A stretch of DNA of 64,000 nucleotides from an uncultured Candidatus Saccharibacteria bacterium (GCA_964502615.1 CAZCXF010000004.1:7199-71198), one strand, 5' to 3'. Positions 10,511 through 34,700 are shown, numbered from the stretch's first letter. Numbers and translations: made by a program. The notes: generated by a model from the letters alone, not told the origin.

Positions 10511-10512
10511 AA

Positions 10513-14137: not shown

Positions 14138-14641
14138 TTAAGGGTTATTATAGCAACCTTTTTGAGTCTGGCTACCATTACCAACAGAGGACCCATCATA
14201 GGTACCACTACTACCCACACAATAATCATGTCCAGTTGGATTACTACCTAAATATACTGGTGTATTTAGACTAGTAGAAATAGAATATTTTTGAGAAGTA
14301 GGATTATTTGCACCCACGTAAAATCCTCCCGCCGAATCTTTAACAATTCGCTTACATACTGCTTGAGCATCACTTGCATAAGCACTAGAGGTAAATCCTA
14401 AATCACAATCCTGAGCAGTATAAAAATATGTTGCCGGAGACTCAATGTTTGCATAACTTCCGTTGTCAGCGTATTCTTGTAAAAGTATTTTTACAAACTC
14501 AGTGAATTCTCTTCTAACTGAGGCATCTTTTGCATTATTCCGTGCATTAGATGACATAGCCATTACTACACTTGCAAGTATTGCAATGATAGCCACAGCA
14601 ACAAGGAGTTCGATTAACGTAAAACCTTTTTGAGTTTTCAT
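14138..14641 (-). CDS. Type IV pilin / pseudopilin with an N-terminal prepilin cleavage-methylation motif
   Basis: 'KGFTLIELLVAVAIIAILASVV' is the canonical G|FTLIE class III signal peptide. 167 aa. Confidence 0.75.
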   Translation of the reverse strand: MKTQKGFTLIELLVAVAIIAILASVVMAMSSNARNNAKDASVRREFTEFVKILLQEYADNGSYANIESPATYFYTAQDCDLGFTSSAYASDAQAVCKRIVKDSAGGFYVGANNPTSQKYSISTSLNTPVYLGSNPTGHDYCVGSSGTYDGSSVGNGSQTQKGCYNNP

Positions 14642-14683
14642 ATAATTTATTAACTACTGTCTATTAATAATTTTTATAATCTA

Positions 14684-15760
14684 CTAGTTAACTTCTTTTA
14701 TTTTATTTTTAATATCTTGTTCGAGATTTTTAACTTCTTTTAATTCTCCTATGAGACTAGCACTAGCAGATTCGAGTTCTGCTATTTCTTCTTCTAACTC
14801 ATTAATTTTACTTGTTTTTTGAGGATACCTATAAACAAAGTTTGCTCTTTTCTTTCTTAAGAAAATAAGGAGTAAGATAAATATTATAATTACAAGAGAA
14901 ATTATAACTATTGAGTTCATATTGCTTTTAAAATCAAAAGAAAATATGCCAGGGTTAATCTTTTCATTTGGTAAAGAAATCCATTTATCTATTATCTGTT
15001 GGTGTTCTTTTGCACTTATTTTTTGTAGACCTTTAGCTAATATAGAGCTCAATACAGTTTTATCTTTGGGTACGATAAAAGCCATTTTAGAATCAAGAGT
15101 AAGGCTACCAACCACTTTAATACTTCTCATTGATTGCTTTGATAATAGATATGTTAAAGATGCAGAATTAATAACAGTAGCATCTACTTCATTTAAGGCT
15201 ACTTTTTGTAATGCAAGTTCACCGTCTACAACTTCTTCTGTTATAACTCTTGGATAATTTTGTTTAATATAAGAAACAACCGGAGAACCTTTAATAACTG
15301 CTACGCTTCTATTATTGAAATCATCCAGTGTCATACCTTCGCGTGAGTCATAATCTTTGCGTACCGCTATAACTACCGGAAAAATTGCGTATGGTTCACT
15401 GAAAATAACCGGTAAATCTTGGTTTTTATCAATCTCTAGAGTCGATATATAGTCAACCTTAGGTTCGTTCATACTTAAGATTATGTCAGATCTGGTACGA
15501 GGAGTTATAAAATCAACTTTTATATCAAGCTTCTCGGCTACAAGTTTAATATAATCTACAAAAATTCCTTGTGATATATAAGAAGAATCATTGAATGAAA
15601 AAGGGGGGTTATTCCTCTCAGGAATAACAGAGATTGTATTATTCCTAGATGATAACCATATGTTTTCCTCACTACTTAGAAGATCTGATTGGGCGTTTGC
15701 GACCAAAAAAGGATTGGTAAAAAAAAGAGCTAATATAATATATATAGGGAATAATTTCAT
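14684..15760 (-). CDS. Secreted SBP_bac_3-like (family 3 solute-binding) domain, then a single TM helix and a short cytoplasmic coiled coil
   Basis: Signal peptide and ~250 aa periplasmic-binding-fold region. TM 'IVIISLVIIIFILLLIFL'. C-terminal heptad 'INELEEEIAELESASASLIGELKEVKNLEQDIK'. Confidence 0.55.
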   Translation of the reverse strand: MKLFPIYIILALFFTNPFLVANAQSDLLSSEENIWLSSRNNTISVIPERNNPPFSFNDSSYISQGIFVDYIKLVAEKLDIKVDFITPRTRSDIILSMNEPKVDYISTLEIDKNQDLPVIFSEPYAIFPVVIAVRKDYDSREGMTLDDFNNRSVAVIKGSPVVSYIKQNYPRVITEEVVDGELALQKVALNEVDATVINSASLTYLLSKQSMRSIKVVGSLTLDSKMAFIVPKDKTVLSSILAKGLQKISAKEHQQIIDKWISLPNEKINPGIFSFDFKSNMNSIVIISLVIIIFILLLIFLRKKRANFVYRYPQKTSKINELEEEIAELESASASLIGELKEVKNLEQDIKNKIKEVN

Positions 15761-15774
15761 GTTGTAATTATAAT

Positions 15775-16857
15775 TTAAGTTTCAATTTTTTTTATCTTCT
15801 CCTTTATATTTTCTTCAAGAGCTTTAACTTCATTTAATTCGTACATCAATCCCTTGCTTGTATCTTCAAGTTCAATAATTTCTTCTTTTAACTCCTCAAC
15901 TGCATCTAATTTAGCGTGCCTTCTTAGAGAAAAGTGTCCGTGCTTCTGTCTTAAAAGTAAAATTATTATTATAAAACAAAGAAGAATATATAATATTATT
16001 GTACTTAAATTACTCTTTACATAAGGTACAAAAGAACTTGCGGATTTTATTTCACTTGGTACTACTACCCATTTTTCTGTAATAACTTTACGATCATCAG
16101 TGCTTATTTGTTGCAATCCTTTATCTATAATTGATTGTAAGATTTCTTTATCTTTAGGAACTGCAAAAGATAGTTTATATTCAAATCCGGTACTTCCAAC
16201 GATCTTTACACTGTTTAGTACTTGTTTAGAGAGATAATATGACAGAGATGTTACATCTATAATTGCTGCATCAACTTCTCCCAATACTACTTGTTGTAAG
16301 CCTAGTTCATCGTCCGTCACAGATTCAATAACAACTCTTGGATTATTGGTTCTAACAAAATCTTCAACCGCATATTTACTACCAATAGCAACTTTTTTTC
16401 CAGTTAAATCGGCAAGAGTTAAATTACTTCCAATATCTATATCTTTCCTCACGACAATGACAGCGGGGCTCGTAATATATACATCAGAAAAATATAAAAA
16501 TTCACTTCGATCTTTAGTTTCTGACAGAGATGTAATAACATCACCTCTACTATCTTGTTTAACATCATCTAGGATCTGAGAAAGTGAGCGAGCTGGTAAA
16601 TACTCAATTTTGGCTCCCAACTTTTTAGCAACCATTTCAATATAGTCTATTGATAAACCCTGTGGGATTCTGGAAGAGGTTTGATATGAATATGGAGGAA
16701 AATTTTTCTCTGGATATACAACTATAGTGTTGTTACGAGACTTAAGCCACAAGTTTTCTTGGGGTGTTAATATATCACTATTAGCCATTATTATATTAGG
16801 GGAAATTGATATAAGGCCGAAAATACTTAGAAATACCAAGTGGCGGAATCTCTTCAT
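15775..16857 (-). CDS. Paralog of 14684..15760 (SBP_bac_3-like ectodomain + TM + C-terminal coiled coil)
   Basis: Collinear with its neighbour at ~40% identity, e.g. 'NLWLKSRNNTIVVYPE' vs 'NIWLSSRNNTISVIPE'. Confidence 0.55.
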   Translation of the reverse strand: MKRFRHLVFLSIFGLISISPNIIMANSDILTPQENLWLKSRNNTIVVYPEKNFPPYSYQTSSRIPQGLSIDYIEMVAKKLGAKIEYLPARSLSQILDDVKQDSRGDVITSLSETKDRSEFLYFSDVYITSPAVIVVRKDIDIGSNLTLADLTGKKVAIGSKYAVEDFVRTNNPRVVIESVTDDELGLQQVVLGEVDAAIIDVTSLSYYLSKQVLNSVKIVGSTGFEYKLSFAVPKDKEILQSIIDKGLQQISTDDRKVITEKWVVVPSEIKSASSFVPYVKSNLSTIILYILLCFIIIILLLRQKHGHFSLRRHAKLDAVEELKEEIIELEDTSKGLMYELNEVKALEENIKEKIKKIET

Positions 16858-16876
16858 AGTTTACATAATACCATAT

Positions 16877-18022
16877 CTATTCCCTTTTTTCAGCAGGAAC
16901 GGGAGATATTGGGGCTTGAGATAGAATCTTATCCTGACGCTCCAACTCATGCTCTGTAAGTTGTATTTTCTCTTCTTCTAGACCCATTTTACGTTTTAGG
17001 ATACGCATACGTCTTGATGAATACCAAGGTATAAAGTATATAAGCATTATCAAACCAACTATTGGTATAAGCAGTATTAGTATATTGATGAATATAATTA
17101 GTGCTTTTATGATTTTACTATCATTTACAAATAATCTGACCCCGAGTCCTGGCTTATTAATATTGTTGTCATTATCTACCAAAAATGGTGTTGCATTATA
17201 GACACCCGCAACTAGATTGTTAGGTGTAATATATTCAAATAATCCTTTGTCGTTGTTTTTAACCAAGACATCAGTTAGACGTTTCTTTTTGGATTGTATA
17301 AAGTCCATAAACTGCTCACCAAAAGACTTACTAGAAACTTCTTCAAAAGATAATTTGGTTAGGGCATTAGGTTCTCCTTTTCCTTTCAAATAAGCACTAT
17401 CCTTTGAAAGTACTGATTGCGAATATTCGGTTATCACAGGCAACGCCAGCAATTTATTATTATTTGTCTTAGCAATTGGCCTTATTAAGTCGAGAGCTCC
17501 AGAAGCTATAATATTAAAACTTGTAGAATTTAATCCATTTATTATATTAGTTCCGAGTCCATCATTTGCAAGTATTGATCCTTCATTAAAAGACACTGTT
17601 GCATTACCAGTCTTCTTAGCTTGAAATACTATGTGAAAAATACTACCTCCTTGTCCAGTGTATCCAGGATTTAATATCACTCCTTCAAAAGATATTTTAT
17701 TTCTACTAACATTTGGATCATGTGTCCATATATTCAAAATACTATTATCCCTTGAAATAGAACTTATTTGTATCAAATCCCCAGGGAATGTAATAGACCC
17801 TGAGACAGCGTTTATTGCTTGGTCTGGTGATTTAACTTTGACATCGATTGTTATATTTTCTCCTTCCGATACCGTCGTCTGAGATTTACTTAGAAAAAGT
17901 GATGCTTGGCCTGCATATACAGGAGTAGCAATAAATACTACTAATATTAGAACACTATATATTATAGTTCTTACGTAGTATTTCATCTTTTTCTTTTTAC
18001 CACAAAAAACAGAAAATAGCAA
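16877..18022 (-). CDS. Membrane-anchored surface protein with an N-terminal cohesin-like domain
   Basis: Signal/TM, then 'ISFEGVILNPGYTGQGGSIFHIVFQAKKTGNATVSFNEGSILANDGLGTNII' resembling the cohesin beta-sandwich C-terminal strands. C-terminal TM anchor 'IIFINILILLIPIVGLIMLIYF'. Confidence 0.4.
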   Translation of the reverse strand: MLFSVFCGKKKKMKYYVRTIIYSVLILVVFIATPVYAGQASLFLSKSQTTVSEGENITIDVKVKSPDQAINAVSGSITFPGDLIQISSISRDNSILNIWTHDPNVSRNKISFEGVILNPGYTGQGGSIFHIVFQAKKTGNATVSFNEGSILANDGLGTNIINGLNSTSFNIIASGALDLIRPIAKTNNNKLLALPVITEYSQSVLSKDSAYLKGKGEPNALTKLSFEEVSSKSFGEQFMDFIQSKKKRLTDVLVKNNDKGLFEYITPNNLVAGVYNATPFLVDNDNNINKPGLGVRLFVNDSKIIKALIIFINILILLIPIVGLIMLIYFIPWYSSRRMRILKRKMGLEEEKIQLTEHELERQDKILSQAPISPVPAEKRE

Positions 18023-18852
18023 GATATTAATATAATAAATACTCCTAGCAATTGAAGTGATGATAGCAAACCAGGTATCTCAACACTAGATTCTCTAATA
18101 TTACCATTGAAATCCAGAGCCCGGACAATGATTGATCTTTTTACTATTCCCTTTGATATCTCAAAAGGGCTCACAACATCCTTCCAATAGCTATGTGAAT
18201 CTTTTATTTGATATTTTTCTACTCCAGAAATAGTATCAGTAGTAAAGAAAGATATCATCGATGGCGTTTTAGAGAAAAATCCTGAAGGAATGTATTCAAC
18301 TACAAATGGTTCCGGTGGCTCTTTATCCCCGCTACTATTCTCAGTAAGATTTATTTTTTGATCTTCTGGTATGTTAATTAAAGTCGTTGCATTGTTTCTG
18401 ACATGGCCTAGGGGCGTTCCAAGGCCATCATTTTGTAGAATACTAGAATCACTAATAGTAAATTCACCTGTGCCATTTATTTTTGGAGAAAACAATAACT
18501 CAGTTATAGGTATAGGTTGTAATCCAACTTTATCAGGGTCATACAAGCCTTCAACTCCACCAGGAATAATCCCAGAAAAATGAATTTTACCTCCGTCATC
18601 TTTTGGAGTTTGAAGCCATAATTTTTTTATACCACCATCTTCTTTGTAACCTTTAAATACAAAAAGCTCTTTGGGATATTCTATTGTAATATCCATAGAG
18701 TTAACTGATACCCCTCCAGAATTTAGATTTACCAATACACTAAATTGACCTGTGCTTTCTATTTTATTTGGAGCAACAATAGAAACATCAGCTGCATATG
18801 CAACCAATGTACTACTTAGAAATATTGCAACTATTAGTAAAAAATTTTTCAT
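17983..18852 (-). CDS. Second membrane-anchored cohesin-like protein (paralogous domain)
   Basis: 'KIHFSGIIPGGVEGLY…GTGEFTISDSSILQNDGLGTPL' shares the 'IL(A/Q)NDGLGT' motif with the upstream protein. C-terminal TM anchor. Confidence 0.4.
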   Translation of the reverse strand: MKNFLLIVAIFLSSTLVAYAADVSIVAPNKIESTGQFSVLVNLNSGGVSVNSMDITIEYPKELFVFKGYKEDGGIKKLWLQTPKDDGGKIHFSGIIPGGVEGLYDPDKVGLQPIPITELLFSPKINGTGEFTISDSSILQNDGLGTPLGHVRNNATTLINIPEDQKINLTENSSGDKEPPEPFVVEYIPSGFFSKTPSMISFFTTDTISGVEKYQIKDSHSYWKDVVSPFEISKGIVKRSIIVRALDFNGNIRESSVEIPGLLSSLQLLGVFIILISCYFLFFVVKRKR

Positions 18853-18875
18853 ATCTTTATTATTTTAATAATACA

Positions 18876-19772
18876 TTAACCAGTCCAATAAAAAGCGAGA
18901 ATTGAAAAATCGACTAGATTAATAATATTGTCATTGTTAGTATCCACGCACCTTGGTGGGTTATCCTTACCATACCAGAAAGCTGCAACTGAGAAATCGG
19001 TAATGTTAATGACTTGGTCTGCGTTGCAATCTCCAGGAATATTGTTGGTTAGATCAACGCTTAAAATATTTGCTTCTCCTATTGTAAACTGAATTACTTT
19101 ACTTATTTTTTTATCATCATGATAATTGACGTGTAGATTGTAACTTCCCTTTTTAAATCCTAAGAGTGGTAAAACAAGTTTATATTTACCATCACTTCCA
19201 CTAGTTAGGTTGAATATCTTATTTGGAACTCCTTCTATGACAACATCTAAAAATTGGTTAGGTAATGAATAACCCAGTACTCCTAAATAATCACCTTGTT
19301 TTACTTCTGTCTTATCTGTAGCAATCGTTGGCGGGAAACGAATACCGCTAACCTGAGTAAGATAATCGATTTTTGCAACAATTGGATAATTAAGTAGGAT
19401 TGATTGCCTATTTGCTTTATCTATCGCATAAAGTGTATATAAGACATTTGATTTATACAATTCGCTAAAAGTTATACTAAAATATCCACTATTATCGGCA
19501 ACTGTGGTTCCTTTTGGGACTCCATCTTTCCATACGTGAACAGTAGCACCTGGATAAGCCCAACCAGAGAAAACAATTCCACTAAAGCGCCCACTATGAC
19601 ATCCACTACAATTATCATCAAGTGGTGTTGCGAAACCACCTACAGTTGCTGTAACAGATACATTTTCAGGAGAACTTACAATAGTAAAACCAAATACTGG
19701 TTGAATAGAAATCAGTAAAAAAAATATAAAGGAGATAAATTTTATAACATTTTTTTTATACATGATTGGCAC
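18876..19772 (-). CDS. Secreted protein with an Ig-like beta-rich body and a C-terminal type I dockerin-like double Ca-binding repeat
   Basis: 'DCNADQVINITDFSVAAFWYG…DTNNDNIINLVDFSILAFYW'. Both repeats match D-x-N-x-D-x3-N-x2-D followed by a hydrophobic helix. Confidence 0.6.
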   Translation of the reverse strand: MPIMYKKNVIKFISFIFFLLISIQPVFGFTIVSSPENVSVTATVGGFATPLDDNCSGCHSGRFSGIVFSGWAYPGATVHVWKDGVPKGTTVADNSGYFSITFSELYKSNVLYTLYAIDKANRQSILLNYPIVAKIDYLTQVSGIRFPPTIATDKTEVKQGDYLGVLGYSLPNQFLDVVIEGVPNKIFNLTSGSDGKYKLVLPLLGFKKGSYNLHVNYHDDKKISKVIQFTIGEANILSVDLTNNIPGDCNADQVINITDFSVAAFWYGKDNPPRCVDTNNDNIINLVDFSILAFYWTG

Positions 19773-20787
19773 CGTTTGGTGTATTCATACCAAGACGAGC
19801 CTTCTGTATAATATGTCGATTGTAACGTCGAATCAGTTTCTTACCACCCCAGAATACAATTATAAAGATAACAGCTAGACATATAAGCAATTGCCAAGGA
19901 AGTACGAAGAAGAAAACTGTCTCAGTTGCACGAGTTGCATTTGTACCATATAAAACATTTAATTTTGCAAAGTAAGGTCCAAAAGCATAGTTGTGCCATT
20001 CATAAAGTGCTTGATCAAAGAAATTAGCTATTAAACCAGTTGGAGCTATATAATCTTTTGATCTTGGTTTTTTAACCCAATCAACATTAAATTTTCGAGT
20101 ACTTTTAGGGAGTATATTTCCTCCACCTGGATTAGCATCAATAGTATCTTCTGGTATGTAAATTAAGTCATGCATTTTTATCTTACCAACTGGTTTTATT
20201 CTGTCTCCTCCATCATTTTTAAAACGATAACTAAAAGATACTGGTAATGTAGTATAAAAGATTTTTTTATCTTTCATTGAGAAATCAAGTAGTCCTCCCT
20301 CTTCTTTCACATCTCCGTTAACCGATAGCAATATCAATATTCCAGCTCGAGCACCGATTGAAAGTCCTGCCCCTTCTGTATCTGGAGTCGTACTCCAAAA
20401 TATTGCAGCGAAATGTCCTCCTGGCTCAGCGTTTTTAGGAATATTAATATGGAAGTTTAAAGTTTTAGATTCTTTAGGTTTTAAAGTTACAGAAGAATCT
20501 GTAGTCATCCAAGTTCCTAGATCTTCTTTAGCATTAACAAATGAAGGGTTACCAGATTCTCCAGAAGCTTCGAAGTTAGCAAATGAAGAGTAATATGTGA
20601 TTAGACCATCACTTTCATTAGTAAGGATTATTTCTTTAGTAATAGACTCACCAGGATTACCTGTAACTTCTATTCTTACGGGAGAAAGTGTAATAGCATA
20701 CGCACTACCTCTAAACCCAAGGAACAAAGCAAGGGTTAGAACCAAGAAGGTAATCTGTCTTCTTTTGTTGAAGTAAGTACGAGTCAT
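19756..20787 (-). CDS. Secreted, C-terminally TM-anchored Ig-fold protein (DUF916/CscA-like or PapD-chaperone-like)
   Basis: Signal peptide. 'ITLSPVRIEVTGNPGESITKEIILTNESD' resembles the first strand motif of pilus chaperones and DUF916. C-terminal TM 'LLICLAVIFIIVFWGG' plus a basic tail. Confidence 0.4.
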   Translation of the reverse strand: MTRTYFNKRRQITFLVLTLALFLGFRGSAYAITLSPVRIEVTGNPGESITKEIILTNESDGLITYYSSFANFEASGESGNPSFVNAKEDLGTWMTTDSSVTLKPKESKTLNFHINIPKNAEPGGHFAAIFWSTTPDTEGAGLSIGARAGILILLSVNGDVKEEGGLLDFSMKDKKIFYTTLPVSFSYRFKNDGGDRIKPVGKIKMHDLIYIPEDTIDANPGGGNILPKSTRKFNVDWVKKPRSKDYIAPTGLIANFFDQALYEWHNYAFGPYFAKLNVLYGTNATRATETVFFFVLPWQLLICLAVIFIIVFWGGKKLIRRYNRHIIQKARLGMNTPNGANHV

Positions 20788-20797
20788 TAAATTTAGA

Positions 20798-22009
20798 TTA
20801 GAATGTAGCAGTTGCTATAAATGTAAGAGTGTCGGCGTAGTCATTGTGAGCAGGAACAGCGCCGCTTATTGAAGCATTAACTGCAACCTGAGCACGACCA
20901 CCTGCAAGGAGACCGGATGATGAAACCATGTTATCTCCAGTTGTAGTTAAACCTTTAACATCGTTAGTACCACCATCTGCTGCACATGTACCAGCGTTGT
21001 AAGGTGCTGCTTTTGAAAGAGTTCCCGTTGTTTGAGTTACAGATATAACACAAAGACCATAGTTTGTTGTGTTTGTAGCCATTGCTGCAGCTGTGTTTGT
21101 AATCTTATCTGCAGGAGTCGAAGTAGACACTAAACCGTTTGCACCATTTGCATTTTTAACAGTCACCACTACTCCACTAGGAGCATTTGTATCAAGGTCC
21201 ATCATTATTCTATTAATACCATCAGTTGCTCCAGAAACTTTAACGTCTGATGTACTTAAAGATCCAAGTGGTACATTGTATGGTGCACTAGTATTTTCAC
21301 TACCAGCTGTACCTACGTCTAGATCAAAAGTAAGTGTAGAATTAACTGTCGCAGTAACATTTACTTGGTCATCATCTACTATACCGTAAGCAATTTGACT
21401 TGAGTGTGAATTAACGAATGTTGTAAAACAAGCTGCTCCAGATTGTTCGTCACACATTTTAAAGTCAATATTTGTAGCAGCAACAGATGAAGGATTTGTA
21501 AGTACTCCTGTACCTCCAGTCTCACCCTTTATTGTAAATGTAATAGCTGAGGCAGTTGAGGAAGAAGTAAAAGTTGATGCAGGTTTAACAGTAAAAATTA
21601 AATTTGTAGTATCTATTGCGACACACACACTTTGAGCAGTAGTAGCAGTACAAGTAATAGTACCTGCACCTGCAGACACAGCATCTATAGTGTGAGAACC
21701 GTTACTATCAGAGAAAGCAAAGTCAGATGTTTGCCATGTTCCACTTTGAGAAAAGGTTGCAGGAAAGTCTACTTGAAATCCATCAAGATTACCTCCTGTT
21801 ACATCAAAGTCTACTCCAGTAGGCATTGTAAATGTTACAACATGGTCTGCATTAGCACTTATTTTAAGACGAGTTGCTGTATCTTTTGATGCAGTAAAAC
21901 TCGCAGCAGTTGCCAATTGTGGACCAAATGAATAAACGACTATAAGTGCAATTGTTAGAAAGGCACTTAAAAATTTAGAGAACGTAGATTTTATAATGTG
22001 TGTGCTCAT
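20798..22009 (-). CDS. Secreted Thr/Ser/Ala-rich beta protein ending in a Csu/SCPU-pilin-like (or WxL-like) C-terminal strand 'AHNDYADTLTFIATATF'
   Basis: Signal peptide. The C-terminal motif resembles the CsuA/B terminus 'GDYKDTLLVTVNF'. Confidence 0.45.
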   Translation of the reverse strand: MSTHIIKSTFSKFLSAFLTIALIVVYSFGPQLATAASFTASKDTATRLKISANADHVVTFTMPTGVDFDVTGGNLDGFQVDFPATFSQSGTWQTSDFAFSDSNGSHTIDAVSAGAGTITCTATTAQSVCVAIDTTNLIFTVKPASTFTSSSTASAITFTIKGETGGTGVLTNPSSVAATNIDFKMCDEQSGAACFTTFVNSHSSQIAYGIVDDDQVNVTATVNSTLTFDLDVGTAGSENTSAPYNVPLGSLSTSDVKVSGATDGINRIMMDLDTNAPSGVVVTVKNANGANGLVSTSTPADKITNTAAAMATNTTNYGLCVISVTQTTGTLSKAAPYNAGTCAADGGTNDVKGLTTTGDNMVSSSGLLAGGRAQVAVNASISGAVPAHNDYADTLTFIATATF

Positions 22010-22125
22010 TTTGAATAAATGATTTTATTGATTAATAATAATTAAATTTTCTACCCTTATTTTACCACAACAAGATACGAAATCCTATATATAAACTATA
22101 AGATGTGGATAACTTTGGCCTTTAG

Positions 22126-23217
22126 TTAAAAGGTCCCTGTGGCGATAAAGGTCAATGTATCTGCATAATCATTATGGGCTGGAGTCGAAGTACTATTTTC
22201 TGCATTTACTCTAATTTCTGACCGTCCACCAACAATACCAGATGATACAGTAAGAATATTCCTAGATGTATTATCAACTAGACCAACCGAATTAACGTGT
22301 CCACTTGTGCATGGTGATCCATCATAAGGATTTGCTTTAGTTAAAGTACCTCCTGAAGATTGAGTAACTGAACCGACACAGAGTCCATATCTTGCAACAT
22401 TGGGAGCCATTGTTCCAGTAGTTGATGGAATTGAATCAGTAGGTACAGATGTTGATTTTAGAGCACCATTCTTAGATAAAACTGTAACAGCTGCACCACC
22501 AGATGCATTTGTATCTAAATCTACCCATATAGAATTTATAGTACTATTATCAGAATTGCTTGCCTGGGCTGTCGACAATGTACCGAGAGCTACATTATAT
22601 GGAGCAACTGTATTAGTATTTGAAGTAGAAGTATCAATATCAAATGTAATGGTCTGAGGTATAACAGTTGCGCAAACTTTTCTTGTGTATGCAGTTGTGT
22701 TCCCTACTGTTGCATTATCAGCTGGGTTTGCAGGATTTCCAATCATAGAAAATAAAGTTGTATCGTAACCAGTGCAGTTTGTATCTTGATAAGCAATAGT
22801 TATAGTATCGTTTCCAGCTGCATCAGATAAACATGCACTTTGTCCATACGTGTTAACACTTGTTTCCTGTACGTGAGCATTTGTTACAGCAGATAGTCTT
22901 ACAATTCTCTGAAAATTTCCAGAGCAAGAATTCCCAATAGCTGAAACGCTACTACAACATACAACATTGCCGTCATAATTTGCATTTGATTGACTCGGAA
23001 GTTCTGCGTGAGCATTTGTCGAACCTGACATGCGAAGTAATGTAGTGAAACCACTTGTATTACAAGATGACTGTGATACTACGTTGCAAGAAAGCGCCGC
23101 ATATATACGCGAAACTGGATAAAGAGCCGACACAACAAAAACGATTATTAATATAAAATTAAAACGTTTTGTCTTTAAGTGGCCCTGTTGTTTTTTCTGG
23201 TACTGGTGGTGGTACAT
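22126..23217 (-). CDS. Paralog of 20798..22009 (identical C-terminal 'AHNDYADTLTFIATGTF'); the true start is probably an internal Met
   Basis: Shared blocks 'APYNV(P/A)LG(S/T)LST', '(M/V)DLDTNA(P/S)', 'YGLCV…VTQ' and the same C-terminus. The 5' end overlaps 23159..23677. Confidence 0.45.
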   Translation of the reverse strand: MYHHQYQKKQQGHLKTKRFNFILIIVFVVSALYPVSRIYAALSCNVVSQSSCNTSGFTTLLRMSGSTNAHAELPSQSNANYDGNVVCCSSVSAIGNSCSGNFQRIVRLSAVTNAHVQETSVNTYGQSACLSDAAGNDTITIAYQDTNCTGYDTTLFSMIGNPANPADNATVGNTTAYTRKVCATVIPQTITFDIDTSTSNTNTVAPYNVALGTLSTAQASNSDNSTINSIWVDLDTNASGGAAVTVLSKNGALKSTSVPTDSIPSTTGTMAPNVARYGLCVGSVTQSSGGTLTKANPYDGSPCTSGHVNSVGLVDNTSRNILTVSSGIVGGRSEIRVNAENSTSTPAHNDYADTLTFIATGTF

Positions 23218-23677
23218 CTTTTTTATTATTTATAGGAGCGACTTCAATAATTTTATCTATACTTGGTCTATACAAAACGGCCTTACCAGCTTCTGTAAAA
23301 ATTAGTACTTTGTCGTCTTTCTGAGCACCTGAGAAGAAAGCTTGGTCTTTTAATTTTACTGGATCAGATACAGTAGCTATAGTAGGTTCTTCTCCAGTGG
23401 GTATTAGATATAGTTTTGCCACTTTACCTAACAAATCTTTTGCTTCTTTTCTAGCACCTTCTTGAGTGCTCTTTTCTAGATTGTGTAATTTATAGTAAAA
23501 ATACGCGCTCAGAGCGACTGCAACTATTAGAATTATGAATATAACCATATTAAGAAACTTTTGTTTGGTCATGGAAGATCTTTTTTTAACGATTTTTGTT
23601 GCAAAAACACTATCTTGTGATTCATATAAGTCAGAATCATCTGATTTACTATTCCGGAAGTCAATAGACATAAACAT
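23159..23677 (-). CDS. Hypothetical single-pass membrane protein
   Basis: TM 'FLNMVIFIILIVAVALSAYFYY'. No homology recognised. Confidence 0.35.
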   Translation of the reverse strand: MFMSIDFRNSKSDDSDLYESQDSVFATKIVKKRSSMTKQKFLNMVIFIILIVAVALSAYFYYKLHNLEKSTQEGARKEAKDLLGKVAKLYLIPTGEEPTIATVSDPVKLKDQAFFSGAQKDDKVLIFTEAGKAVLYRPSIDKIIEVAPINNKKDVPPPVPEKTTGPLKDKTF

Positions 23678-23734
23678 ATTATAAGTTAAATAACTAATTT
23701 CAGCAATGACTATATTCGGTGTATACTAAAAATC

Positions 23735-24982: not shown

Positions 24983-25791
24983 AGAAAAAGTTAAAAATAT
25001 TAGTCACAGGAGGAAGTGGGATGGTAGGAAGCCAAGTAAAATTTGGTATAAAGCCAAGCCATAAGGAGCTTGATATAAATAACTCTACATCTATAGAAAA
25101 AGCTGTAAAAAAATACAAGCCAGATGTCATACTACATTTAGCGGCTTTTGCAAATATGCTCGGTTGTGAAGGAAGTAAAATAAAAGCGAAAAAAATAAAT
25201 GTTACAGGAACACAGAATATAGCTCGTGCCTGTAAGAAAAACGACATGAAGCTAGTCTATATGTCCACTTGTGCTGTCTTTGATGGTAAAAAGAAAACAC
25301 CTTATAAAGAAAGTGATCGAGCTAAAACCTTAAATGTATACGGCGAAACAAAACTTGGGGGTGAAAAAATTATACAAAAAATACTTCCGAATGCCTTGAT
25401 AGTACGCACGGGCTGGCTATTTGGTGGCAATAAAACTGATAAAAAGTTTGTGCAACTAACTTACCAAAAATTTAAGAATGGTGAGGAGGTAATGGCAACA
25501 TCCGATCGAAAAGGTTCGCCTACATACGTGAAAGATTTATTGGATACAATAGAAAAATTGATATACCAAAACAAAAGTGGAATATATCATGTAGTAAATT
25601 CTGGTACTGCTTCATACGCTGATATTGCAAAAGAAATCAAAAAAGTAGGTAAATTTAAACAAGAAATCAAGAAAGTTTTGGCGCGTGATATAGAAAATAA
25701 AAAACTAAAAAGGGGTAAGAATGAATCTCTTGCTTCTTCAAAAATAAAATTAAGATCTTGGAAAGTTGCCCTAAAAGAGTATCTTAACTAG
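24979..25791 (+). CDS. dTDP-4-dehydrorhamnose reductase-like NAD(P)H sugar reductase (RmlD family)
   Basis: 'ILVTGGSGMVGS', 'YMSTCAVFDG', 'PYKESD', 'NVYGETKLGGE', 'IVRTGWLFG', 'SDRKGSPTYVKDL', 'YHVVNSGTASYADIAKEI'. Confidence 0.75.
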   Translation: MKKKLKILVTGGSGMVGSQVKFGIKPSHKELDINNSTSIEKAVKKYKPDVILHLAAFANMLGCEGSKIKAKKINVTGTQNIARACKKNDMKLVYMSTCAVFDGKKKTPYKESDRAKTLNVYGETKLGGEKIIQKILPNALIVRTGWLFGGNKTDKKFVQLTYQKFKNGEEVMATSDRKGSPTYVKDLLDTIEKLIYQNKSGIYHVVNSGTASYADIAKEIKKVGKFKQEIKKVLARDIENKKLKRGKNESLASSKIKLRSWKVALKEYLN

Positions 25792-25792
25792 T

Positions 25793-25821
25793 TTGACTTT
25801 AAGTCAAAAATATGTTATAAA
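25793..25821 (+). promoter_or_regulatory. Sigma-70-like promoter TTGACT-17 bp-TATAAA for the DUF218 gene; the -35 lies in the 16-bp perfect palindrome TTTGACTTAAGTCAAA
   Basis: Seen in sequence. The downstream gene has a GGAGGTG SD and a TTG start at 25894. Confidence 0.35.
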
Positions 25822-25893
25822 ACAAACAAGACATAAACATACATTCATATCTACCCTTCTTAACTGATGGGTATACAAAGACGGAGGTGAACA

Positions 25894-26589: not shown

Positions 26590-26612
26590 AAAATAGAATC
26601 TTATTTTATTTG

Positions 26613-27998: not shown

Positions 27999-28004
27999 AG
28001 GTTA

Positions 28005-28745: not shown

Positions 28746-30792
28746 CTTGTAACTTTGATTCTTCTTCAGCGATAATTTCTTGCCATTTTTTTACATCTGG
28801 ATTATTTGGTTCTATTTCCATCTCTTTTTTTACCATCTCTTTTGTTCTTGCCAACTGTCCAGTTCTAAGATACGCAAGAGCAAGATAACTATAAGATTCC
28901 CAAGTTCCCCAACCATTTTTTATTGCGTTTTCTAAATATATAGCCGCTAAATAAGGATTTGAATTAGCTTGATCAGCTTTTCTTAATTCTGTTCTACCAA
29001 GTACCATCCATACCTTCCCTCGAGTTGGATCCAAAGAAACAACTTTTTGATAGAATTGCATAGACAGATCAACTCTACCTACCAGATTACATATATCTGC
29101 AGCAGCTATCAAATCTTGAGTTTTGCCAGAAGTAGATAGAAAATCTATTTTGCTTAAAATATTATCGTTTGTTATCTGATATTTATCTATAACTTTTTTA
29201 TTTTCTATATTGTTTTTAACCAATATAACTACACTATTATCTAAATATACCCAAACCCAGCTAGGATCGTATATTCTTCTATAAATAAAATCCCGCGCTC
29301 CATCTAGGGCGTCATAATGATAAAAAATAATAGTATTAAAATTGTAACTTTTGTCCAATTGTTTCCAACTATCCTCGTTCCTGATTGCCGGTAAATATAT
29401 ATCACTAAAAAAAGAAGCGGAGTAAGCATCTCCAAAACGATTATCAGTGAAAACTTTTTCTTTTGGATATAGTGTTCCTATTAAATAACTTCCTATATCA
29501 GTATCATTAAATATAGGACCCTTTAGATTATTGGCTTTAAAAAATTTAATTGGATCTTCAGAATATCTGGTCAGGCCTATCCCTTGTTCCATCGAATTCA
29601 TTAATTTAGTCTGACCAGCAAAAATAAGATAAATTATTAGAACAGGAAAGAATCCAAAAAAAGTATATCTTATTAAATTCTTAAAATTTGGCAGTTTTGA
29701 ATATAATTTTTCTTTCAACCAAATAAATGGACCATTTAAATTGCTAACAACTGCAGGTAAGAAAATTATTGCAAACAATGGTAAACCTCTTACTATAATA
29801 AATGGCAAAATAGTTGAACCAATAGAAGCTAAAAAATAGAATATGTAGTTATCTCCCCAAATTGGTAAGTGGTTCTTCTTACGGTAGATAAATGCGATTA
29901 CGAAACTTAAAAACAAAACTAGTATCGAAGGGAAAAATACTGTAGCAGATATTGTATCCCATCCAGGCGCTAAATTATGAGCATTTATTATAGGCGTGAT
30001 CTCTCCACTTGAGATTGGAAAAGTGGCAGAAGTATTGACCATCAATGAGAAAACAACACCCCATAATCCAAATGGGTTTATAAAAGATACCGCTATCAAA
30101 GATACAAATACAATTGAGAGTTTTTTAATTATTTGATTTTTAAAGATTTTCTTTCTATTTAGAATTAAATTTTGAACCAGAAAACCCAAAACCATCATAA
30201 TACCTACCCCAAACAAGAGATGAGTATTAACCCATATAAGCTGTATCGGTATTAACCAAAAAATCCTTTTACTATTGGGATTCTTCTGTAAATGTAGAAG
30301 TAAATAGAGGAATAGAACAACAAATAGAAAACTAAATATCTCTGGCCTGAAAGCAGTACGATTTATAAGTATAAATATTGTGGGTATTGAGAGTAATGCG
30401 GTAAGATAAAAACTTTTATTTTTTTGGGTTAGATAAAAAAGTAATCCAAACATCCCAAGTAGAAGGATGATTTTAAATATAACCATACCACCGAAACCAA
30501 CTGTCAGATAAAGAACATAGGCAAGGACTCCATAGAGCCAGTGATGATTTGCAAAGTGTTGATTGGGTTCTGTATATGAGTAAACATTTTTTGTAAAAAC
30601 ATCATAATTCCCCGCTAACACATCTACTCCGTTTTGCATTTGGCGAGGTAAATCTTGTGCTACTGGTAAACTGATTTTATACACAAGAAAAGATCCATAC
30701 AGTGCTATGAGTAGTGTAAAAATTATTATCTTGAAAGATTTCGAGTTAAGCATCGGAAATTTATTAAGCGATTTATAACTTTCTGGAATCAA
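28732..30792 (-). CDS. Polytopic membrane protein (~12 TM) with C-terminal TPR repeats; probable GT-C-fold glycosyltransferase (TMTC/PMT-like, GtrC-analogous)
   Basis: Many TM helices, then 'FYQKVVSLDPTRGKVWMVLGRTEL…YSYLALAYLRTGQ' TPRs. Operon context with GT2 and GtrA. Confidence 0.45.
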   Translation of the reverse strand: MIPESYKSLNKFPMLNSKSFKIIIFTLLIALYGSFLVYKISLPVAQDLPRQMQNGVDVLAGNYDVFTKNVYSYTEPNQHFANHHWLYGVLAYVLYLTVGFGGMVIFKIILLLGMFGLLFYLTQKNKSFYLTALLSIPTIFILINRTAFRPEIFSFLFVVLFLYLLLHLQKNPNSKRIFWLIPIQLIWVNTHLLFGVGIMMVLGFLVQNLILNRKKIFKNQIIKKLSIVFVSLIAVSFINPFGLWGVVFSLMVNTSATFPISSGEITPIINAHNLAPGWDTISATVFFPSILVLFLSFVIAFIYRKKNHLPIWGDNYIFYFLASIGSTILPFIIVRGLPLFAIIFLPAVVSNLNGPFIWLKEKLYSKLPNFKNLIRYTFFGFFPVLIIYLIFAGQTKLMNSMEQGIGLTRYSEDPIKFFKANNLKGPIFNDTDIGSYLIGTLYPKEKVFTDNRFGDAYSASFFSDIYLPAIRNEDSWKQLDKSYNFNTIIFYHYDALDGARDFIYRRIYDPSWVWVYLDNSVVILVKNNIENKKVIDKYQITNDNILSKIDFLSTSGKTQDLIAAADICNLVGRVDLSMQFYQKVVSLDPTRGKVWMVLGRTELRKADQANSNPYLAAIYLENAIKNGWGTWESYSYLALAYLRTGQLARTKEMVKKEMEIEPNNPDVKKWQEIIAEEESKLQDGNK

Positions 30793-31759
30793 ATTCCTTA
30801 TAGATTACTCCTGAAAGATCTTGGATTATTTTAGTTAGATCATTAAAATCATTACCTCGAGTCATTATACATATGAGATAAGGATTTTTAGGATAGTAGA
30901 CTATGCCACAATCATGTAGTTGTTTTTTGTTGTTAGGTAGATCGGAGCGTTCTCCGAATTTATGCGCAACTTTTAAATTTTTAGGAACTCCTTTTATTAT
31001 GCCATCATTAAAATCAGTATCACTTAATATAGATAAGGCTTTTTCAGATGTCTCTTGTTTATTGAAGAATGAAGAGTGGAAAAGCTGAGTAAATATACCT
31101 GCGTATGATTTAACTGTTACAGTTTGGTCATAGTCATTTTTGGGGTCTACAATACCCAAATCTACATCTGTTTCAAGCAATAAATCTTCTTTAGGACTAG
31201 CAATACTCAAATATTTTAAGAGGCCAAAATACGCACGGTTGTCAGAATACTTTATCATTCTTCTTAAGAGGTCATCTATTGAGTATTCTACGTCTTCCTG
31301 TATTAACGCTTTCGGAGAAAAAAATTGTTCTGAATAGTCCTCTATTTTAGGAAAGGCTATTTTTCTATCTAGGAAATTATCATGCCTATCTTCGTTAATT
31401 CTAAGATATGTTATAAGTAAGGGTAATTTTAGAAGACTAGCGGGAGAAAATTGTATATGTTCATCTATGCCCATTGTTGGGCCATTTATAAGGTCACGAA
31501 AATATATTGATACATTATCGGCTTTTTTTTCTGCAATCTTTGTCGCAATCATATTCTCTAGGTCATTTTTTAATTTTATATAGTTACTTTTATTAACTAC
31601 ATATTTTTGCATACATTTTAGCTTTGGGTTTATATGTTCAAATTTGGAAGAAACACAATTTTGACTATTATTTATTGAACTGCTAGTAAAAAACCCAGCA
31701 AAAAAAATGATGGTAAATAAAAATAACTGTAAGATTATTCTTTTAAAATTCTTACTCAT
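30773..31759 (-). CDS. Secreted class-A beta-lactamase-fold serine hydrolase (PBP/beta-lactamase-like)
   Basis: SxxK 'PASLLK', SDN 'YSDN' and a KxG-like 'HKFGE'. Signal/TM N-terminus. Confidence 0.5.
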   Translation of the reverse strand: MSKNFKRIILQLFLFTIIFFAGFFTSSSINNSQNCVSSKFEHINPKLKCMQKYVVNKSNYIKLKNDLENMIATKIAEKKADNVSIYFRDLINGPTMGIDEHIQFSPASLLKLPLLITYLRINEDRHDNFLDRKIAFPKIEDYSEQFFSPKALIQEDVEYSIDDLLRRMIKYSDNRAYFGLLKYLSIASPKEDLLLETDVDLGIVDPKNDYDQTVTVKSYAGIFTQLFHSSFFNKQETSEKALSILSDTDFNDGIIKGVPKNLKVAHKFGERSDLPNNKKQLHDCGIVYYPKNPYLICIMTRGNDFNDLTKIIQDLSGVIYKEFDSRKL

Positions 31760-31762
31760 AAA

Positions 31763-34700
31763 TTAGGTTGTTGTTGGTGGCGGAGTGTTGTCAGCTGGTG
31801 GTGGGTTACTACCTCCATCTGTTGGTGGTTGCGTATTGTCAGCTGGTGGTGGGTTACTACCTCCATCTGTTGGTGGTTGCGTATTGTCAGCTGGTGGTGG
31901 GTTGTTACTGCCTCCATCTGTTGGTGGCGGATTTGTTGGAACTGGATCAGGAGTAAGGCCTGTTTCCTCTAAGATACTTTCAAATATTTTTGGGTCTTTT
32001 ACTGAAAATACTGTCCATGAGAATCTTATATCTCTATTCGGTGTTTTATTCAAAAGTATTGTGAACCCTGTTTGGTCTTTATCGACTACTATATATCTTA
32101 TATCTTCTCCAAACAAACTCGCTGCGGCACTATCATCAACATTGTCATCTTTTTCAAAAGTCATAGATGCGTTTACAACTGGAGTTGAAATATATGGCTT
32201 ATCAAATACTATTTTTGCTCTCCTGTCCCCTGCTTTTATGAGTGCATAACCAGCAGTATCTTTATTAAACAATGGCGGTAATGAAAATTCCGCTTGCTTG
32301 CTGAAAACAACATCACCATCAAATGTTGTTGTATTGGAGAAGAAGGATAAGCCATTAAATTTCGCTTGACCTGCAAATGAACTATCACCTGTAACTGAGA
32401 GCATATTCATTGTAAATCCATTTACATTTCCATCGGCATCTTTAGTCAAGAAACTTTCGATAACTTTTAGCCTTGTATCGAGGTCTGTTCCACTTGTTGT
32501 AAGCCCTGCGATAGTAGTACTTGCAGTAGTAAGATCTTCTTGCAATTTTTTAATATCTGCTTGAGCAATAGTCAAAGCACTAGATAGTGTATTCATACCC
32601 TCCGCAGTTAGAGTAAAGGCTTGTTGTCCCTCAGCAAGAGAATTAATCTGATCGGTAATTGCTTGTACTCCGGATATATCTCCCAATTTAATATCGTGTG
32701 CTGTGACAGTACCTTTAAATGTTGCATTGCCAAGACTATCAAATACGATAGCTGGATTTACACTATTTGAAGTATTTGTACCATCTTTAGTACCTATTAT
32801 AAACTTACCATTTTCGTTTAGTATTAGATTTATATCATCACCCGTAGCAGATTTGAGAGTATTTGTTGCAAGTACATCCGTCGTAATTTTTGGAGTTATT
32901 ATTTCAACTGCAGCAACTAGCCTATCTGCATATAAGTCAGACATGTCTAGTGTATTTGCATTAGGATCTACCGTTGGACCTGGAGCAGTGCGTGATGCGA
33001 CAACATCGCTTAACAATTTAGCAAGAACTTTTTGACCAAATTCCTGTTTATCAGCAACTGGGGCTTCTGGAGTATTTGGTGTATCACCTGTATTTGGAGT
33101 AAGACCACTTAGTAGAGTAGAGTCTTCAGTTATAGATTCCAACTTCTGACCGTTGTAGTATCCAGGTTGAACGAACAATATAACCACACCCATACGATCT
33201 GGATCAACATTTGGATCATCAACTGCAGGATTCCAACCAGTCAAAGCTTGACCTATAACATGACCTGCTTTTGTAGCCTTCATAGCCCAGCCTGGATGCG
33301 AGGATGTTGTAAGATAATCACCTGGTTTGATAATACCATTCATAGCAGATACTTTTACTGGAACACGTCCAGCCAAGGCAAGGACAACACTCTTTGCTCC
33401 TTGTCTTAGCATTCCTGAACCCATCACCATATCTGGTTGAGTTGATATAACTCCAGCAACATTAGAATCGTATTTTTTACTACTCATTTTTACACCGGCT
33501 TCAAGATCAGGATCAAATGATACGACATCAGCAGCTTCAATAAGTGGATCATTAGTTGCATAAAATTCTCCGAGGTCGGCACCAGATGCTCCACGAATTT
33601 CAATAATACGTACTTCTCCACGGCCTCCGTTACCTCCAGCACCTCCGGTAACTCCAGGACCTCCACCTCCTCCACCACCACCAGGATTTCCTCCGTTACC
33701 TCCAGCACCTCCAACTCCAGCAGCAGCATTGTTCGCTCCTCCTCCACCTCCTCCGTATCCAGCAGTACCAGTAGAGTTTGCATCTGCAGAGTTTGCACCA
33801 TTTCCTCCAGCTCCTGCTGCGGCTCCTCCTCCAGCTCCTCCTCCTCCAGCAACCCAGTTTTGAGTTCCTCCAGATTTTCCTCCAGCTCCTCCTGCTGATG
33901 CAGCGTTGTTTCCAAGAACTTGTCCTCCAGCTCCTCCTCCACCTCCTCCCCATATTGAAGTTCCTCCAGCTCCTCCTGTAACAAGAGCAGCGTTGTTTGA
34001 TCCAGCAGTTGAACCTCCTCCACCTCCTCCGTATATTGCAGAACCTCCGGCACCAGCGGCAGTGTTTGTAGCTGTACCTCCTCCACCTCCTCCGAATTGA
34101 CCTCCGGATGCGTTAGCAGCACCTCCGTTTGGACCTCCTCCAGTACCTCCAGTTGCAGATGGAGAGTTTGAACCGACAGCGCCAGTACCTCCTCCACCTC
34201 CTCCACCAGACCCAGCAGCAGCTATACCTCCCTTACCTCCTCTACCTCCACCATAAGCTTCAATAAATACAGTTGATGTAGCAGAACAAGCCGCATTTAC
34301 AGAGACACATGCAGTATCTCCAGCAGTACCGTTTGTAGCACTTGCACCTCCAGTCACAGCTGCAGGAGCTTGAACGTTTACAGCAGATGAAGTAAAGTTT
34401 GCACCATCAAATGTTTTTGTAACATATGCTCCTCCTCCACCTCCTGAACCTCCCATACGAGGGTTTGCTACTGCAGCTGCCTGTCCTCCACCTCCTGAAC
34501 CTCCTCCTCCGATTGCTTCAATAATCAAAGATTTAACACCTGCTTTTTTGGTGTAAGTAGTGTTTGAAGTAAATACGTTGTAGTTTACATCACCACAAGT
34601 TGCGACAGTGATAGTACCGTTTGTATCCATATTCATACAACCGTTTGCTGATGGTTTGTCAGGAAGAGTGATTGTATAGTCTGTAGTTATTGAAGCTGGT

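Follow-up and report, generated by a model that had tools for sequence, protein, structure and literature searches.

WxL/Csc clusters, which are found in Lactobacillales, Listeria and Enterococcus, encode a small WxL protein, a large WxL protein and a WxLIP with a DUF916-DUF3324-transmembrane organization; each cluster has one WxLIP and at least two WxL proteins, small and large (PMC10599100). The WxL domain is C-terminal, 160-190 aa long, and contains two W-x-L motifs. WxLIPs are proteins of 337-365 aa, with isoelectric points (pI) of 8-11 for the L. plantarum and Listeria members; strand insertion has been proposed as the way in which WxLIPs retain WxL proteins (PMC10599100). Here, we describe a locus of comparable organization, located at positions 14138-23677 of a 64,000-nucleotide stretch of DNA (the window) from an uncultured Candidatus Saccharibacteria bacterium (GCA_964502615.1, CAZCXF010000004.1:7199-71198). 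Its ten genes were named g1 to g10 in coordinate order.

Two other systems are relevant to this locus. Cohesin-dockerin pairs occur in cellulosomes and as non-cellulosomal modules in many bacteria and archaea. Strand complementation is established for chaperone-pilin pairs, and the chaperone-usher (CU) pili compared below are represented by CfaA-CfaB of CFA/I and the archaic CsuC-CsuA/B.

Patescibacteria, which are ultrasmall, account for a large share of bacterial diversity, and those in culture are attached to other cells during their life. For the retention of surface proteins on their sortase-poor, single-membrane envelope we know of no explanation, type IV pili and a few Saccharibacteria adhesins excepted. 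Our literature search found no paper tying WxL or WxLIP proteins to Patescibacteria and none describing the gene set reported here; in a Saccharibacteria transposon sequencing (Tn-seq) paper, the only related mention is an essential dockerin-domain protein. Structurally alike proteins with an InterPro 'peptidoglycan-binding domain (PGBD)' are among the five top-expressed secreted proteins of three archaea-parasitising Paceibacteria (PMC10936435); these could conceivably be orthologues of g7, a WxLIP_PGBD-like protein.

A preliminary description of the window had viewed the locus as four kinds of attachment or display machinery combined in one functional unit. A better reading is a pair of receptor-ligand modules for anchoring, together with accessory proteins. 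Rather probably, Paceibacteria-type Patescibacteria inherit the locus vertically and use it as a cassette for surface display, in which two modules would anchor secreted proteins by non-covalent binding. Overall, the new elements are an unmodelled C-terminal anchor domain, its pairing with a putative receptor of WxLIP/PapD-like type in bacteria other than Firmicutes, and a fixed coupling of this pair to cohesin-dockerin genes and giant surface proteins.

A seven-gene cassette conserved in order and strand

Ten consecutive open reading frames (ORFs) occupy the minus strand of the locus, with intergenic gaps of -59 to +116 nt and no housekeeping genes between g1 and g10. All ten products carry an N-terminal hydrophobic signal/anchor segment. 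The preliminary description was right in both respects, i.e., the co-orientation with short or overlapping gaps and the density of secreted and anchored proteins. A C-terminal transmembrane helix is also present in g2, g3, g4, g5 and g7. The g6, g8 and g9 proteins have a signal peptide but are not themselves membrane-anchored, unlike all of their proposed receptors.

To analyze synteny, we used 80 loci from distinct species-level genomes, each encoding a g7 relative (43-69% identity in g7), which were scanned with tblastn and with hidden Markov models (HMMs) built for this analysis; the denominators below are assessable loci. Because the loci were picked via two conserved g7 peptides, they sample Paceibacteria-type relatives best. 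Relatives of the proteins belong almost exclusively to Patescibacteria metagenome-assembled genomes labelled Paceibacteria, Nomurabacteria, Parcubacteria, Minisyncoccia or Uhrbacteria.

The query gene, g7, is present in 80/80 loci. Directly upstream of it, 74/76 loci have a g8-type gene, which codes for an N-terminal domain and the anchor tail described below, and a second or third anchor-tail gene lies upstream in 49/63. Loci have one to three anchor-domain genes directly upstream of g7, and 12 add a large one further upstream (925-2931 aa). A g10 orthologue is found upstream of the cassette in 39/62 loci. On the downstream side, g6 follows g7 in 77/78 loci, with the dockerin detected in 76; g5 was found by tblastn in 75/75; and cohesin-like genes number at least one in 71/71 loci and at least two in 66/71. 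A gene for an SBP_bac_3 protein with a transmembrane helix and a coiled coil (g3; scored at tblastn E<1e-4) comes directly after g4 in 31/69 loci (~45%), and two copies occur solely in loci L009, L010, L014, L082 and L086. A pilin gene after the SBP genes was seen in 1/60 loci. Genes flanking the locus in the window recur in 1-7/80 loci, the exception being gyrB, which is nearby in 26/80.

The conserved unit is g10-g9-g8-g7-g6-g5-g4, in the same order and on the same strand, with g3 optional. Because order and strand are kept while most flanking genes are not, the proposal of one functional unit holds for these seven genes. It does not extend to the remaining part of the run: g2 is a local, lineage-specific duplicate of the optional g3, and g1, the pilin gene, is an accidental neighbour outside the cassette. 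The cassette is among the most conserved surface loci in the sampled Paceibacteria-type genomes.

The same conservation over 80 species, with most flanks (gyrB excepted) not retained, contradicts the idea that unrelated genes for secreted proteins became neighbours by chance and have no common function. We regard this idea as extremely improbable, even though the co-directional run continues through gyrB without a clear boundary and promoter and terminator scans were uninformative. Specifically, the minus-strand run goes on past g1 through gyrB, a CNNM/CBS gene and a DUF4406 gene, to 10513. The sole strong minus-strand terminator-like hairpin (15 pairs and a T-run, 10514-10481) comes after the DUF4406 gene, beyond gyrB, and the array from g10 through gyrB and CNNM may have no internal intrinsic terminator. 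Since the run passes gyrB without a strong terminator, co-orientation by itself does not delimit the unit. In a consensus-based promoter scan, the number of sites was not above that in shuffled sequences.

The GC content of the locus is 0.341, compared with a background of 0.339 in the rest of the window. Because the two values are equal in effect, there is no sign of recent acquisition, and horizontal acquisition, for which the preliminary description had suggested a composition check, was rejected on composition.

In some loci only one part of the cassette is found. Two loci reached independently via anchor-domain proteins and of sufficient length for assessment (L090 and L091) have an adjoining g7-like gene and lack cohesin and dockerin genes. 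Likewise, an Uhrbacteria locus (L003) has anchor-domain genes beside a g7-like gene, with no dockerin or cohesin genes. These three loci show that the two modules are separable, and the pairing of g7 with anchor-domain genes is therefore the tightest link of the cassette.

The g7 protein and a shared C-terminal domain

The most conserved gene of the cassette is g7, with a median identity of 52% over the 80 species. It codes for a protein of 343 aa with a pI of 9.4. In its AlphaFold2 (AF2) model (pLDDT 85), a helix (residues 3-24) is followed by two beta-sandwiches (32-156 and 164-295) and a C-terminal transmembrane helix (298-332). When the model was compared with PDB structures using Foldseek, the top matches were Enterococcus faecium WxLIP structures, 9i1y_A (E 1.2e-11) and 9i25_C (E 2.2e-11), with target-based TM-scores (TMt) of 0.49-0.51; 9i25_C is a WxLIP bound to a long WxL protein. 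The length of g7 and its layout (signal peptide, two Ig-like domains, transmembrane helix) are within the published WxLIP range, and its pI is within the range of the L. plantarum and Listeria proteins. As in WxL/Csc clusters, the gene for one tethered two-Ig protein has two or more neighbours coding for secreted proteins with a common C-terminal domain.

Several observations weigh against placing g7 among WxLIPs. Its match to Pfam WxLIP_PGBD (DUF916, PF06030) is below threshold (22.4 bits vs a gathering cutoff of 27.3, E 1.3e-4). Half of the orthologues (25/50) match this family at E<0.01 (best 2e-5), and fn3_5 is matched equally often. WxLIP_HBD (DUF3324, PF11797) was not detected in g7 or its orthologues, and the conserved WxLIP motif NQIDKxxxYFDLK is absent from g7, in which the N-terminal strand reads AITLSPVRIEVTGNPGE. 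Neither the g7 sequence nor its family profile, which matched nothing there, found WxL or WxLIP relatives among PDB sequences, and a search with g5 was likewise negative for these families. The next fold matches are RbmA and the CU chaperones CfaA and CsuC (TMt about 0.5, E about 1e-9), the chaperones being in complexes with their pilins, and TM-scores are about equal for WxLIP and CU chaperones (0.49-0.54). Because CU chaperones reach a similar TM-score, the fold discriminates only weakly between the two. The earlier DUF916/CscA-like label is retained with regard to the solved structures matched best by the AF2 model and not with regard to Pfam. Based on this model, and because DUF916 and DUF3324 are below their thresholds, we call g7 WxLIP-like rather than a member of the WxLIP family.

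The candidate ligands of g7 are g8 and g9. Their C-terminal ~180 aa are 52% identical (E 3e-45) and have a common end, ...PAHNDYADTLTFIATxTF. The shared domain has ~185 aa; g9, which ends in ...DYADTLTFIATGTF, matches the anchor-domain HMM with E 1.5e-66. In g8, a conserved N-terminal domain (residues 36-208) precedes the anchor domain (222-403), whose end is ...TLTFIATATF. The g8 protein is Thr/Ala/Ser-rich, with a pI of 4.4, and its AF2 model (pLDDT 91.4) has two beta-sandwich domains. Fold matches of g8 in PDB are generic tandem-Ig adhesins and pilins, including integrin leg domains, MSCRAMMs, EbpB and CfaB. No relatives of g8 or g9 were detected in Pfam, NCBIfam or PDB sequences, the last also searched with the g8 family profile. 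The 380 homologues of g8 carry Patescibacteria names where they are named, plus two other labels.

A profile search of 1.84 billion representative sequences with the anchor domain gave 1565 clusters, and features of the domain were read on the 150 representatives listed. The domain is at the extreme C-terminus in 150/150 of them, and 148/150 end in F or Y, mostly as TGTF or TATF, which corresponds to the pattern T-x-T-F/Y. These proteins range from 173 to 2955 aa: 21 have fewer than 300 aa, 98 have 300-450 aa and 31 are larger. Passengers of the domain include F5/8 type C and RCC1 domains. There are two anchor-domain subtypes, with PAHxDY and AGxY tails, which are homologous (hhalign 99.6%, E 4.7e-24). 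A tblastn search of plasmids with the second subtype gave no match, and L. garvieae plasmid pGL5 has no WxL genes according to its paper. None of the clusters of the g8 family that were listed is annotated with a Pfam domain. Judged by these searches, the C-terminal anchor domain is new: about 1565 representative clusters contain it, and Pfam has no model for it.

The g9 N-terminal domain has some features of its own. It is Cys-rich (10 Cys; residues ~41-175, 22693-23097 on the minus strand) and contains an R-[LM]-S-x-x-T-N-A-H motif twice, as LLRMSGSTNAHAE and IVRLSAVTNAHVQ. The motif is conserved in orthologues, e.g., in locus L012, and matches no family. A related sequence, RLKISANADH, is located at residues 46-58 of g8, just past the signal peptide.

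The preliminary description had designated g8 and g9 as WxL/SCPU-like paralogs. Paralogy is supported over the C-terminal ~180 aa. The WxL/SCPU identity found no support in any test, as Pfam and NCBIfam gave no match, W-x-L motifs are missing, and the top PDB folds do not include a WxL chain. These results also count against the anchoring model proposed below. When 61 members of the g8 family were compared with Pfam at E<=10, no WxL (PF13731), SCPU or PapD signal rose beyond noise. Two W-x-L motifs within the last 185 aa were seen in 0/150 of the listed representatives; 72/150 have no Trp at all in this region, and the C-terminal domains of g8 and g9 lack it too. The 50 best fold matches of the g8 model did not include the solved WxL chain of 9i25. 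Because W-x-L motifs and matches to PF13731 and the NCBIfam WxL models are absent, the anchor domain is, by its defining sequence features, not a WxL domain, and g8 and g9 are not classed as WxL proteins here. The domain is nevertheless used like WxL, being modular, always terminal, and present in small and very large forms; this is an analogy of organization and not a proof of homology. Given this gene grammar and the WxLIP-like partner, a WxL-like role of g8 and g9 is plausible by analogy. Other differences from WxL/Csc clusters are the lack of an LPXTG partner, the host group (Patescibacteria), and the cohesin-dockerin set that is joined on.

We infer the binding steps of the cassette, as well as its surface or host-contact role, from these comparisons. 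In the first module, g7 would be tethered to the membrane by its C-terminal helix and expose two Ig-like domains of the WxLIP/PapD-chaperone type. It would capture the shared ~185-aa C-terminal domain of secreted g8, g9 and larger family members (up to ~3000 aa), likely by beta-strand complementation in which the invariant free C-terminus, ...T-x-T-F/Y-COOH, is recognized. In this way the module could hold secreted proteins on a cell without an outer membrane. No sortase motif is present in the ten proteins.

Similarity to CU pili raises the possibility of a fibre rather than a display device. Both g7, with its two-Ig fold (TMt about 0.5 and E about 1e-9 to the chaperones), and its clients, which are beta-sandwiches with a strictly conserved aromatic C-terminus resembling that of CU pilins, are reminiscent of these systems. 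The g7 N-terminal strand contains an invariant Arg, R38, in a motif that we presume to resemble the one around the carboxylate-binding Arg of CU chaperones. In an usher-less donor-strand fibre, g8 would be the polymerising subunit, g9 and large family members the tips, g7 the tethered chaperone or base, and cohesin-dockerin contacts a brace; strand exchange would link the subunits in the manner of chaperone-usher or TasA-type fibres. Consistent with such a role, the fold matches of g8 include CfaB, a pilin (TMt about 0.5), and pilins of Gram-positive bacteria, e.g., EbpB; the g8 segment that directly follows signal-peptide cleavage shows hardly any variation (A35, T39, T44, R47, S51) and is donor-strand-like; and the N-terminal domain of g8, found in 74/76 loci, is conserved far beyond the need of an adhesin tip. 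However, the fold matches of g8 are generic, with query-based TM-scores (TMq) of about 0.2, and in its AF2 monomer, which is complete and predicted with confidence, no strand is evidently missing. In contrast to CU pili, there is no usher and no outer membrane, and g7 is membrane-tethered. No usher-like gene was seen among the ten genes, and the other genes scanned in the window are housekeeping or sugar-modification genes. PapD_N and SCPU had no Pfam matches in the cassette proteins, and the likeness to CU systems is at the level of fold only. We consider the fibre improbable.

Also unlikely, but somewhat less so, is a broader version of these ideas, in which the cassette is a hitherto unrecognised, usher-independent relative of chaperone/subunit systems with an evolutionary link to WxL-WxLIP: g7 would read the aromatic C-terminus, polymerise g8 or dock giant adhesins, and be assisted by a cohesin-dockerin brace, forming a core host-attachment organelle of Paceibacteria.

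Another interpretation is an envelope or S-layer scaffold in which g8 is an abundant array protein held by g7 and the cassette serves general envelope architecture, not adhesin display. The acidic, Thr/Ala/Ser-rich composition of g8, its near universality in the cassette, and the location of the cassette among housekeeping genes at background GC would agree with this role, as would the spacer that precedes g8. This 116-nt g9-g8 spacer is the only sizeable gap in the cassette and holds an extended -10-like element, TGgTAAAAT (read by eye); most of the related loci shown also have about 60-130 nt at the corresponding place, and the spacer may be an internal promoter for g8. On the other hand, no S-layer family was matched, and the anchor domain also carries lectin-like and giant passengers, which fit better with adhesin display. 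We find the S-layer interpretation quite improbable.

If g7 is the receptor of the anchor domain, every protein bearing the domain could be recognized from its sequence as surface-displayed, and the WxL/WxLIP principle would reach beyond Firmicutes. For experiments on host attachment, the interfaces between g7 and the anchor domain and between dockerin and cohesin would then be a small, defined group of targets.

The dockerin protein, cohesin-like proteins and accessories

The g6 protein has two Ig-like domains (Big_6/Bap-like; Big_6 E 1.1e-6) and a C-terminal dockerin with two Ca-binding repeats, GDCNADQVINITDF and VDTNNDNIINLVDF, in which residues D248, N250, D252, D259, D277, D281 and D288 are invariant. 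This agrees with the hallmark of dockerins, a segment of about 22 residues that occurs twice and has an EF-hand-like Ca loop (D-x-N-x-D...D) with a helix after it. The window protein itself is below the Dockerin_1 (PF00404) cutoff (17 bits vs 22.9, E 0.0068). Among orthologues, 41/46 match Dockerin_1 (best 6e-7), and the g6 family profile found the solved dockerins 2y3n_B (3.2e-6), 5nrm and 2vn5, as well as Bap Ig domains (1.8e-7), in PDB. The dockerin label given earlier did not reach threshold for the single protein, and at the family level the sequence matches confirm g6 as a clear dockerin protein.

The labels of cohesin-like anchors, which had been proposed for g4 and g5, were upheld to a lesser extent. 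The g5 protein consists of a signal peptide, a cohesin-like module (~22-165), a PKD/Ig-like domain (~170-258) and a transmembrane helix (267-285). Of its orthologues, 9/46 match Pfam Cohesin (PF00963; best 1.4e-6); its profile found Ruminococcus scaffoldin cohesins (5aoz, 5m2o) in PDB with marginal E-values of 0.009-0.02, and residues 170-258 matched chitinase/ColH PKD-like domains. The g4 protein (probable start ATG 17986, 369 aa) has a cohesin-like module, a further beta domain, a transmembrane helix (308-326) and a conserved charged cytoplasmic helix. Cohesin is matched by 4/38 of its orthologues (best 1.6e-6), and solved cohesins are marginal (E 0.03-0.05). The N-terminal modules of g4 and g5, ~145 aa, are homologous (hhalign 99.8%, E 1.7e-29), and scaffoldin cohesins are the sole N-terminal PDB matches of the two family profiles. 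Other observations limit the case for a cohesin-dockerin module. Support for the cohesin label comes from a minority of the orthologues, and its E-values are marginal; the matches to solved structures (E 0.009-0.05) cover only ~55 residues, and g4 and g5 of the window have no Pfam Cohesin match. The cohesin-like assignment of g4 and g5 from these profiles is weak.

A highly conserved, charged segment, YFIPWYSxRRMRxLKxKxGLEEEKIxLTxHxLERQDK, forms the tail of g4 past the transmembrane helix (16877-17100, minus strand). It is conceivable that this cytoplasmic helix contacts the coiled coils at the C-termini of the g2 and g3 SBP proteins.

In the second module, the membrane proteins g4 and g5 would expose cohesin-like modules that bind the g6 dockerin in a Ca-dependent manner. 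As in known cohesin-dockerin systems, g6 has a canonical duplicated Ca-binding dockerin, the ~145-aa modules of g4 and g5 have family-level matches only to cohesins, and the ligand is predicted to be secreted and its receptors cell-bound. In contrast to cellulosomal systems, there are no enzymes or carbohydrate-binding modules (CBMs), and the passenger of g6 consists only of two Ig-like domains; g4 and g5 are anchored by their own transmembrane helices rather than by SLH domains or sortase, and the cohesin signal is weak. A cellulosome-like degradative complex was rejected, because no enzyme or CBM is present.

The content of the window fits the two-module proposal, with one g7 and two anchor-domain genes for the first module, and one dockerin gene and two cohesin-like genes for the second. 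In addition, it is exactly the three unanchored secreted proteins (g6, g8 and g9) that carry a C-terminal attachment module. In this proposal, g10 and the SBP-transmembrane-coiled-coil protein(s) would be frequent membrane components, and all products combined would make up a fixed scaffold in the envelope, its genes usually being next to one for a giant surface protein.

As initially described, g2 and g3 are SBP_bac_3 proteins with a transmembrane helix and a coiled coil. Their scores to PF00497 are 66.6 and 76.7 bits, well over the cutoff of 26.4 (E 1.8e-21 for g3), and the two proteins are 42% identical. Each has an SBP_bac_3 (Venus-flytrap) ectodomain, a transmembrane helix and a short cytoplasmic coiled coil (~55 aa in g3). 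The ectodomains resemble EvgS Venus-flytrap sensor domains and amino-acid binding proteins, which could indicate nutrient capture: a Csc-like surface complex that, together with the SBP_bac_3 proteins, binds and senses host-derived amino acids or glycans. A use in carbohydrate metabolism was the first proposal for Csc/WxL clusters (PMC1534035). We consider nutrient capture very improbable as the function of the cassette, since about 55% of cassettes have no SBP gene and no transporter, kinase or hydrolase gene is included.

The g10 protein, correctly described as a small membrane protein, is encoded by the first cassette gene. It has 172 aa (gene callers begin at the second ATG, giving 170 aa), a transmembrane segment (41-59) and a conserved extracytoplasmic domain of ~90 aa, in which P93, E96, P98, F114 and F115 are invariant in the alignment. 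It has no relative in Pfam or PDB. By eye, a TTGCTG-17-TATAAT element was noted (23680-23725, minus strand); because it ends six bases before the second ATG, it suggests a possible leaderless start of g10.

For g1, the type IV pilin label agrees with matches to N_methyl (PF07963, 2.3e-10) and TIGR02532 (1.6e-9). The protein has a class III signal peptide with the G|F-x-x-x-E pattern, MKTQKGFTLIELLV..., and a hydrophobic N-terminal helix. Pilus assembly genes were absent from the flanking genes scanned (990-10968 and 25894-31759), which are housekeeping and sugar-modification genes.

Feature coordinates and giant proteins upstream

Coordinates of the ten genes and of associated features are listed in Table 1.

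Table 1. Features of the locus and its surroundings, with positions in the window and the basis of each designation
Feature	Position	Strand	Basis
g10, small bitopic membrane protein	23159..23677	-	Transmembrane segment and synteny
g9, secreted, Cys-rich N-domain and anchor domain	22126..23217	-	Anchor-domain HMM, paralogy to g8
g9-g8 spacer, 116 nt	22010..22125	-	Read directly from sequence
g8, secreted two-domain beta-sandwich protein	20798..22009	-	AF2 model, synteny
g7, WxLIP-like membrane receptor (putative)	19756..20787	-	AF2 model, Foldseek, sub-threshold Pfam
g6, secreted, two Ig-like domains and dockerin	18876..19772	-	Big_6, Dockerin_1 at family level
g5, membrane-anchored cohesin-like protein	17983..18852	-	Orthologue Pfam matches, family profile
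g4, second membrane-anchored cohesin-like protein	16877..18022	-	Homology to g5, orthologue matches
g3, SBP_bac_3, transmembrane helix and coiled coil, optional	15775..16857	-	Pfam, synteny
g2, paralogue of g3	14684..15760	-	Pfam, 42% identity
g1, orphan type IV pilin-like protein	14138..14641	-	N_methyl, TIGR02532
Giant protein and Beta-lactamase2-like gene, tentative displaced partner	30773..43093	-	Neighbourhood in related loci

A giant ORF (31763-43093, minus strand) codes for a Gly/Thr/Ala/Ser-rich protein of 3776 aa with an N-terminal transmembrane segment and a Pro-rich repeat tail. Its GC content is 0.42 vs 0.34. It has no Pfam match, and HMM scans detected no anchor, dockerin or cohesin module. 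It is followed by a Beta-lactamase2-like gene (30773-31759, minus strand; Pfam 9.4e-29).

In related loci, giant proteins are often adjacent to the cassette. Of the 48 loci in which the sequence upstream extends for 5 kb or more, 40 have a same-strand ORF of at least 700 aa that ends just before g10 or g8; most of these ORFs exceed 2000 aa, and the locus edge often truncates them. Homology to the C-terminal region of the giant in the window is detectable in 14 of the 40 upstream giants. A Beta-lactamase2-like gene is upstream of g7 in 5 loci; in L019 and L073, as in L001, it lies between the giant and g10, directly before the latter, an arrangement as at 30773-31759.

In the window, the giant is 8 kb upstream of the cassette, and ~7 kb of sugar-modification genes on mixed strands (23735-30792) intervene. 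These genes code for a Methyltransf_13/14-type C-methyltransferase, an RmlD-like epimerase, GtrA, a GDP-mannose-dehydratase-like protein, a GT2 protein and a 686-aa TPR-tailed protein. These same genes were otherwise found upstream of the cassette only in L020, L023 and L025. Because these three loci share the block and also have no adjacent giant, an insertion or rearrangement is suggested. Since the giant has no anchor, dockerin or cohesin module, its link to the cassette in the window is one of neighbourhood only.

A second giant family was noted in L009, L012, L014, L026 and L050. Its members have more than 2300 aa (cut by the locus edge) and end ~2.6-2.9 kb before g7. Their tails consist of tandem GGSGYTSxPTVxFCGGGG repeats, a poly-Gly run and a short hydrophobic end (...GGGGGGDIGFxY...), and, by its sequence, such a tail could be a C-terminal sorting or anchoring signal.

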